From: Escherichia coli
Lineage (GTDB): Bacteria > Pseudomonadota > Gammaproteobacteria > Enterobacterales > Enterobacteriaceae
Assembly (NCBI RefSeq): GCF_003334305.1
Contig: NZ_QOWS01000012.1
Strand: one strand, 5' to 3'
DNA: 64,000 nt
Part shown: positions 13,788-14,151 of the stretch, in pieces
How positions within the stretch are numbered: position 1 is the first letter of the stretch
Layout: every line of letters begins with the position of its first letter
Translations under genes and position numbers: made by a program
The notes under the pieces: generated by a model
What the model was told of the DNA's origin: nothing
Database searches by the model: none
Seen by the model: only the letters and a program-made list of their open reading frames with translations

Positions 13788-13980
13788 CCCTGCTATGCAA
13801 GATGTTAATTCCGCTTCTCTTTCTATGAGAAAATTTCATTAATATCAGGCATTCTTTTTCATTATGATCAAAATCATATAATTGTTCCGTTATTATGCGA
13901 CCATATGAATATATCCGAAAAAGGATATGTGAAATTTATGCGCTAAATGTTTAGTATTGTTAAATATTAAGGGTAAAAGG

Positions 13981-14151
13981 ATGTTTATCGCCTGGTACTG
14001 GATTGTATTGATTGCTCTTGTTGTGGTGGGTTATTTCCTGCATTTGAAACGTTATTGTCGGGCGTTTCGCCAGGACAGAGACGCACTGCTTGAAGCGCGG
14101 AACAAATACTTAAACAGTACGAGAGAAGAGACAGCCGAAAAGGTAGAATAA
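13981..14151 (+). CDS. Hypothetical small single-pass membrane protein (56 aa)
   Basis: ATG at 13981 preceded by taagggtaaaagg SD; hydrophobic helix IAWYWIVLIALVVVGYFL then basic tail. Confidence 0.4.
   Translation: MFIAWYWIVLIALVVVGYFLHLKRYCRAFRQDRDALLEARNKYLNSTREETAEKVE

Follow-up and report, generated by a model that had tools for sequence, protein, structure and literature searches.

The small open reading frame between ribB and zupT of Escherichia coli is yqiD, a conserved gene for a predicted single-pass membrane protein

Most of the characterised small membrane proteins of bacteria modulate a larger membrane protein. Single-pass regulators of this kind, with their partners where one is commonly named, are AcrZ (AcrB), MgtS (MgtA/PitA), MgrB (PhoQ), MntS (MntP), KdpF and CydX. 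A short open reading frame (ORF) between ribB and zupT has been described in E. coli K-12 both as a protein gene, yqiD, and as an RNA. VanOrsdel et al. (2018, Proteomics, PMC6001520) placed a chromosomal SPA tag on the yqiD small ORF (sORF) and obtained an immunoblot band from LB cultures; their Table 1 lists the gene between zupT and ribB at 3183381-3183551 with a product of 56 amino acids of the same sequence as the one studied here, and they remark that ribosome profiling with tetracycline inhibition had picked out the sORF earlier. Nakahigashi et al. (2016, PMC4909307, supplementary file 3) reported a start site for the sORF M_ECK3031_3032_3181573, which encodes 56 amino acids beginning MFIAWYW. 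Bilusic et al. (2014, PMC4152368) recovered by Hfq coimmunoprecipitation an RNA of ~320 nt from between zupT and ribB, termed ig-ribB-zupT, which was scarcer in hfq and RNase III mutants and which they regarded as a candidate sRNA that also bears a 56-aa ORF. That description came before the YqiD protein was demonstrated, and the RNA is without an Rfam family. We found no published function for YqiD in the literature that could be searched. Most uses of the name in the literature refer to the B. subtilis yqiD (ispA) or are typing errors for YqjD, and concern other genes.

The DNA analysed here (the window) is a 64,000-nt stretch of an E. coli chromosome with the gene order ygiL-ubiK-ribB-yqiD-zupT-ygiD. 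The features that bear on the argument are as follows.

Upstream of ubiK, minus strand: ygiL
Between ygiL and the FMN riboswitch, minus strand: ubiK
12815-12963, upstream of ribB: FMN riboswitch (RF00050, Rfam 120.9 bits), known and annotated
13067-13720, plus strand: ribB
13863-13980, plus strand: conserved 5' region, holding the putative promoter and the 5' UTR; in the alignment, conservation starts abruptly at 13863
13863-13878, no strand assigned: palindrome TATGAT-CAAA-ATCATA, a candidate operator
13968-13973, plus strand: Shine-Dalgarno sequence TAAGGG, 7 nt from the ATG at 13981
13981-14151, plus strand: yqiD coding sequence, 56 codons and TAA, identical to b4756 / YQID_ECOLI
13984-14040, plus strand: predicted transmembrane helix, codons 2-20, FIAWYWIVLIALVVVGYFL, with an aromatic WYW belt at its N-terminal (periplasmic) end
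14041-14106, plus strand: conserved juxtamembrane basic motif, codons 21-42, HLKRYCRAFRQDRDALLEARNK, a predicted cytoplasmic helix
14169-14199, no strand assigned: hairpin CAGAAGTTG-(t)CCA...TGG(c)-CAACTTCTG, followed on the plus strand by ATGTTGCTTTT, in the 57-nt spacer between yqiD and zupT
14209-14982, minus strand: zupT, convergent with yqiD
Beyond zupT, plus strand: ygiD

It is virtually certain that the ORF is the known gene yqiD (b4756), translated from the ATG at 13981. The maximal frame, opened by a TTG, spans 13957-14151 (64 aa); the ATG yields a 56-aa product, MFIAWYWIVLIALVVVGYFLHLKRYCRAFRQDRDALLEARNKYLNSTREETAEKVE, closed by the TAA at 14149-14151. All 56 residues are identical to the MG1655 counterpart (b4756, YP_009518818.1, NC_000913.3 3183381-3183551, on the strand opposite zupT), the cluster of exactly matching proteins bears the Swiss-Prot name YQID_ECOLI, and when the spacer was searched by megablast in 5,426 complete E. 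coli genomes, the ORF carried the RefSeq annotation "yqiD: protein YqiD". Between this ORF and YqiD/b4756/YQID_ECOLI, there is thus no difference in sequence, in position between ribB and zupT or in strand relation. The ig-ribB-zupT RNA shares the locus and the 56-aa ORF, and its length of ~320 nt fits a transcript that begins in the conserved promoter region and ends at the hairpin; the Hfq-bound "sRNA" and the yqiD mRNA are one transcript. An earlier note, made from the window's letters without database searches, had proposed a possible gene for a small single-pass membrane protein at this place. The proposal was right: the gene is yqiD, its tagged product has been seen by immunoblot, a single transmembrane helix is predicted, and the start and the length of 56 residues are those that the note had given. 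The ribosome-profiling evidence of initiation that it asked for exists as the tetracycline-profiling start site of the same sORF (PMC4909307). Its remark that such genes are often under-annotated does not apply, as yqiD is already known: it has been named, its translation has been shown, and it has stood in the K-12 reference annotation and in Swiss-Prot since the 2018 study.

The signals for translation are also as the note had described them. Its strong Shine-Dalgarno sequence 6-8 nt before the ATG is TAAGGG, and a purine-rich sequence at the same spacing from the start is found in all 12 homologous loci. The purine run AAAAGG was considered for this role and rejected, since it abuts the ATG and is too close. 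The AT-rich setting was borne out by a GC content of 0.29 at 13784-13980 versus 0.44 in the coding sequence.

The yqiD coding sequence was found by sensitive blastn in 5,425 of 5,426 complete E. coli genomes, nearly always as a single copy. The search gave 5,431 matches; one is plasmid-borne, and in a few genomes the gene occurs twice. Two deep alleles of the gene segregate in the species. The K-12-type allele is present in 4,432 genomes at at least 95% nucleotide identity, while allele B, present in 993 of the 5,426 (~18%), aligns to it over the first 108 nt only, at ~80% identity. The dS between them of ~1.4-2.1 makes the two as distant as E. coli and Salmonella. Allele B encodes MFIAWYWIVLIVLLAGGYFLHLKRYCKAFRHDRDALLAARSKLDKRSDKEVFEKHQ, with ~69% amino-acid identity to YqiD; it is the positional orthologue of yqiD (171-nt copies at L004:6001-6171 and L002:3119-3289 in our comparison set), and the ZupT protein encoded beside the gene is identical (WP_001295627.1) in both allele types. 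RefSeq calls the allele-B product a "hypothetical protein". This is an inconsistency of annotation, and the product, carried by ~18% of E. coli genomes, could be named YqiD. A comparison of the allele-B loci (L004:1-12108 and L002) with positions 12000-16000 of the window shows a fimbrial operon between ribB and yqiD, and assT-dsbL-dsbI between ygiD and ygiC. The sequences L002 and P0013 resemble recombinants of the K-12-type and B alleles. In strain AVS0968 (L005:3001-3843), an IS1 element lies at the yqiD position; alignment to the gene is limited to its first ~90 nt, and the annotation has no yqiD feature. As one strain carries IS1 in the gene, yqiD is dispensable.

In protein searches, named homologues of YqiD came from four genera, Escherichia (E. 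albertii among them), Shigella, Citrobacter and Salmonella; NCBI and UniRef give many of them the label "DUF4051 domain-containing protein". When 1.8 billion cluster representatives were searched with a profile, some ten further relatives, more distant and 30-50% identical, came to light, and their contigs show the same gene order with the one exception described below (L016). We compared 12 coding sequences by codon; for the nine that are closer, pairwise rates were calculated on codons 1-42, which are free of gaps. For pairs from different lineages, pN was 0.03-0.25 versus a pS of 0.5-0.9, so that synonymous sites are saturated, and dN/dS was 0.03-0.20; in the alignment, variable columns at codon positions 1, 2 and 3 numbered 19, 13 and 35. 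A dN/dS this low at saturated synonymous sites indicates that the frame is conserved and under purifying selection. This comparison across the Enterobacteriaceae had been suggested in the earlier note, and it found the frame kept in related genomes.

The protein itself fits the small single-pass class (at most 60 aa, one membrane-spanning helix). Over the 19 residues 2-20, the Kyte-Doolittle mean is 2.43 and the Hessa deltaG values add up to -2.4 kcal/mol, and the tail behind them is of mixed charge; hydropathy and transmembrane prediction are thus in agreement with the single hydrophobic helix and charged tail that had been noticed from the sequence. No lysine or arginine precedes the helix and five fall in residues 21-35, and from this positive-inside distribution of charge the N-terminus is predicted to be outside and the C-terminus inside. 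We consider it likely, on these predictions, that YqiD inserts in the membrane with this topology. AlphaFold2, given an alignment of 22 sequences, modelled one continuous helix over residues 2-55 with a mean pLDDT of 72, and its confidence peaked over residues 1-20 (84-88 in the membrane segment). Translation from the ATG at 13981 behind TAAGGG would then give a 56-residue bitopic inner-membrane protein spanning the membrane with residues 2-20; its uncharged, aromatic N-terminus would be periplasmic, and the basic helix and variable tail would be cytoplasmic.

Conservation is unevenly spread along the protein. The N-terminal MFIAWYW is conserved, as are G17, Y18 and H21, and M1, I3, W5, Y6, W7 and Y18 are invariant among the close homologues. 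The strongest conservation falls on the juxtamembrane stretch, with the motif KRYCxAFRQDRDALLEAR directly after the helix: H21, K23, R24, A28, R30, D32, R33, D34, A35, L36 and K42 are invariant in 18 YqiD sequences, and A28, R30, R33 and A35 stay so once the distant homologues are added. Codons 43-56 form a variable charged tail, and these last ~14 residues vary freely. A conserved, charged and presumably cytoplasmic helix set right after a membrane anchor looks like a specific interaction surface. Searches for a described family or fold were negative. An NCBIfam scan of YqiD gave nothing above cutoff (the best model, NF038143, reached 18 bits against a cutoff of 50), and RefSeq presumably names the protein by an exact or BlastRule match and not by an HMM. 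A Pfam-A scan gave no match to DUF4051, a model that this version of the library may lack; weak matches to DUF2621 (E = 8e-4), DUF6526 and DUF4381 were set aside as probably due to composition, namely a charged helix placed behind a transmembrane one. A PADLOC scan of YqiD found nothing, and in a profile search of the PDB the best matches, to UPF0335/GapR helices, were not significant (E ~0.1).

The DNA upstream of the gene is also under constraint. The ~120 nt before the yqiD ATG align well in 8 loci of Escherichia, Citrobacter and Salmonella, and conservation of the 5' UTR exceeds that of the coding sequence at its synonymous sites. What lies farther upstream differs from genome to genome: K-12-type E. 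coli, C. freundii and several of the distant loci have ribB there; allele-B E. coli and E. albertii have a chaperone-usher fimbrial operon; and Salmonella and C. rodentium have assT-dsbL-dsbI. As the 120 nt are conserved though the upstream neighbour changes, yqiD appears to have its own promoter. The conserved 120 nt would hold this promoter, and transcription of yqiD alone would start near 13875-13895.

At the edge of this region lies a palindrome whose arms, ATGAT and ATCAT, are invariant in the 8 loci, while the 4-nt spacer between them varies. It is the sole TATGAT-N4-ATCATA site in the 64-kb window, where 0.12 would be expected by chance. Two -10-like hexamers overlap it: TATGAT at 13863-13868, which a promoter scan took as the -10 element, and TATAAT at 13877-13882. 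From its sequence it looks like an operator for some transcription regulator, for which we regard it as a candidate only. A literature search for the palindrome sequence gave no match. The consensus for FNR is TTGAT-N4-ATCAA, and the outer T/A distinguishes FNR sites. The yqiD palindrome agrees with this consensus at 8 of 10 positions; an assignment to FNR was nevertheless set aside, for at the outer T/A position the palindrome has A/T in every species. Resemblances to Fur and Zur sites and to the PhoP and ArcA boxes fail on spacing.

Two published data sets bear on the control of this promoter. Shimada et al. (2017, PMC5493296) listed a genomic-SELEX peak of the RpoS holoenzyme at 3181642 (MG1655 v2 coordinate), in a "type C" spacer (zupT><ribB), without a target gene. 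We infer that this peak maps inside the conserved 5' region, at ~13912 of the window and so 69 nt before the start codon of yqiD: the table uses the same coordinates as the Nakahigashi entry (3181573), with a constant offset of 1,978 nt, and the mapping agrees with neighbouring entries of the table. Most simply, the orphan RpoS peak in the zupT/ribB spacer is the yqiD promoter. In enteroaggregative E. coli (EAEC) 042, Orf3334 ("DUF4051 family") was up in an aar mutant, among 3 of 23 tested genes, and Aar antagonises H-NS (PMC5570504). Orf3334 is probably yqiD; if it is, this would be a hint of an influence of H-NS or Aar on the AT-rich yqiD promoter.

The hairpin at 14169-14199 lies between the convergent stop codons of yqiD and zupT and is probably a bidirectional terminator. 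Its folding z-scores were -1.55 and -2.67; a simple terminator scan of 13650-14300 called nothing, this hairpin included. A strong hairpin of different sequence is kept in allele B of E. coli, E. albertii, C. freundii, Salmonella and two further loci (L013 and L015). The spacer between yqiD and zupT in C. rodentium is 28 nt, without a strong hairpin. In the loci L008 (3198-3201) and L017 (3208-3225), the 3' ends of the yqiD-like gene and zupT overlap by 4 and 18 nt and there is no hairpin, so that the mRNAs of the two genes must be partly complementary there. In E. coli, the yqiD transcript would end at the hairpin, in common with that of the convergent zupT. A start just past either of the -10-like hexamers, with an end after the hairpin, would give a transcript of 320-335 nt, in agreement with the ~320-nt RNA of Bilusic et al.

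It is also possible to see the RNA as the main active product of the locus and the peptide as secondary, the ~320-nt transcript acting as an Hfq-bound, base-pairing (dual-function) sRNA or through antisense or transcription interference on zupT. We consider this unlikely. The coimmunoprecipitation with Hfq and the lower level in hfq and RNase III mutants (PMC4152368) speak for it, as do a 5' UTR conserved beyond the synonymous sites of the coding sequence, the 3' overlaps of 4-18 nt in two distant loci and the short, hairpin-poor spacer of C. rodentium. However, selection within the coding sequence acts on amino acids while synonymous sites are saturated, which argues that the protein is what is conserved there. 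An Rfam search around the locus, on either strand, gave only the FMN riboswitch and noise below threshold, with no family at the position of yqiD, and the conserved structure of the 5' UTR was weak (consensus -5.3 kcal/mol, covariation term -0.75), with no convincing RNA element. In most species, moreover, a strong hairpin parts yqiD from zupT, and many ordinary mRNAs bind Hfq as targets of sRNAs.

The protein reading has a toxic variant, in which YqiD would act in the manner of a type I toxin or depolarise the membrane, as a peptide of the kind of Hok, Ldr, TisB, ShoB and DinQ. A small hydrophobic peptide with one helix and a charged tail does resemble these in size and hydrophobicity, and the AT-rich intergenic location and the Hfq-associated RNA would suit such a system. 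We nevertheless hold this to be very improbable: yqiD belongs to the core genome, with one copy at a fixed place in nearly every E. coli genome, and is not variable or multicopy; its Shine-Dalgarno sequence is strong and accessible, and during normal growth in LB the tagged protein accumulates; neither an antisense RNA family (Rfam, both strands) nor an antitoxin was detected; and a highly conserved cytoplasmic motif is unusual for pore-forming toxins. The length of the ORF is by itself not significant: when the 488-nt region between ribB and zupT was shuffled 2,000 times, an ATG-initiated ORF of at least 56 aa (six frames) arose in 17-21% of cases. Its significance comes instead from conservation, purifying selection and the published experiments. 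That it could be a chance intergenic ORF without function as protein or RNA, as this frequency among shuffled spacers might allow, is already refuted by the conservation of frame, start and Shine-Dalgarno sequence in the four named genera and in distant relatives with dN/dS of at most 0.2, and by direct evidence of translation (PMC6001520, PMC4909307).

The known gene yqiD, encoding a predicted bitopic membrane protein, is very probably the best explanation of the locus as a whole. It is a core gene of E. coli under strong purifying selection, with a conserved cytoplasmic motif and an upstream palindrome. Beyond its identity, interest remains in the palindrome with the conserved 5' region, in the cytoplasmic motif and in the lasting pairing with zupT. 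In 11 of 12 distinct loci, yqiD is convergent with and directly adjacent to zupT. The exception is L016:1-1848. Here a distant homologue (P0117, 74 aa) is flanked on one side by an arylsulfotransferase gene and on the other by the 3' end of a ygiC-like gene, which it overlaps by ~47 nt; neither zupT nor ygiD stands in between. The pairing may be no more than inherited gene order; as the gap between yqiD and zupT is only ~57 nt, insertions are likelier upstream of yqiD.

Like AcrZ, MgtS, MgrB, MntS, KdpF and CydX, YqiD is a protein of the ~30-60 aa range with one transmembrane helix, encoded by a short, stand-alone and late-discovered gene of the sort that sometimes lies beside a transporter gene. 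Unlike them, it has an unusually long conserved cytoplasmic helix, and it has no sequence similarity to any of them. By analogy with these proteins, YqiD would bind a larger inner-membrane protein through its transmembrane and juxtamembrane helices and modulate the activity or stability of that protein; we put forward such a modulating role tentatively, as a possibility somewhat short of probable. The metal importer ZupT is the sole candidate partner that our data offer, through synteny, and we think it doubtful that it is the one. Equally doubtful is a wider scheme, in which yqiD would be a regulated module with a factor acting at the palindrome and with the protein, the convergent Hfq-bound transcript or both tuning ZupT. 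If this were true, ZupT would gain a post-translational or antisense control that is not known for it.

One further arrangement of the two genes was seen in a 2-kb Logan contig (L014:1499-1876), which encodes a predicted 125-aa protein (P0124) made up of the first ~70 residues of ZupT joined in frame to a YqiD-like C-terminal half; this fusion stems either from an inversion at the locus or from a chimeric assembly.
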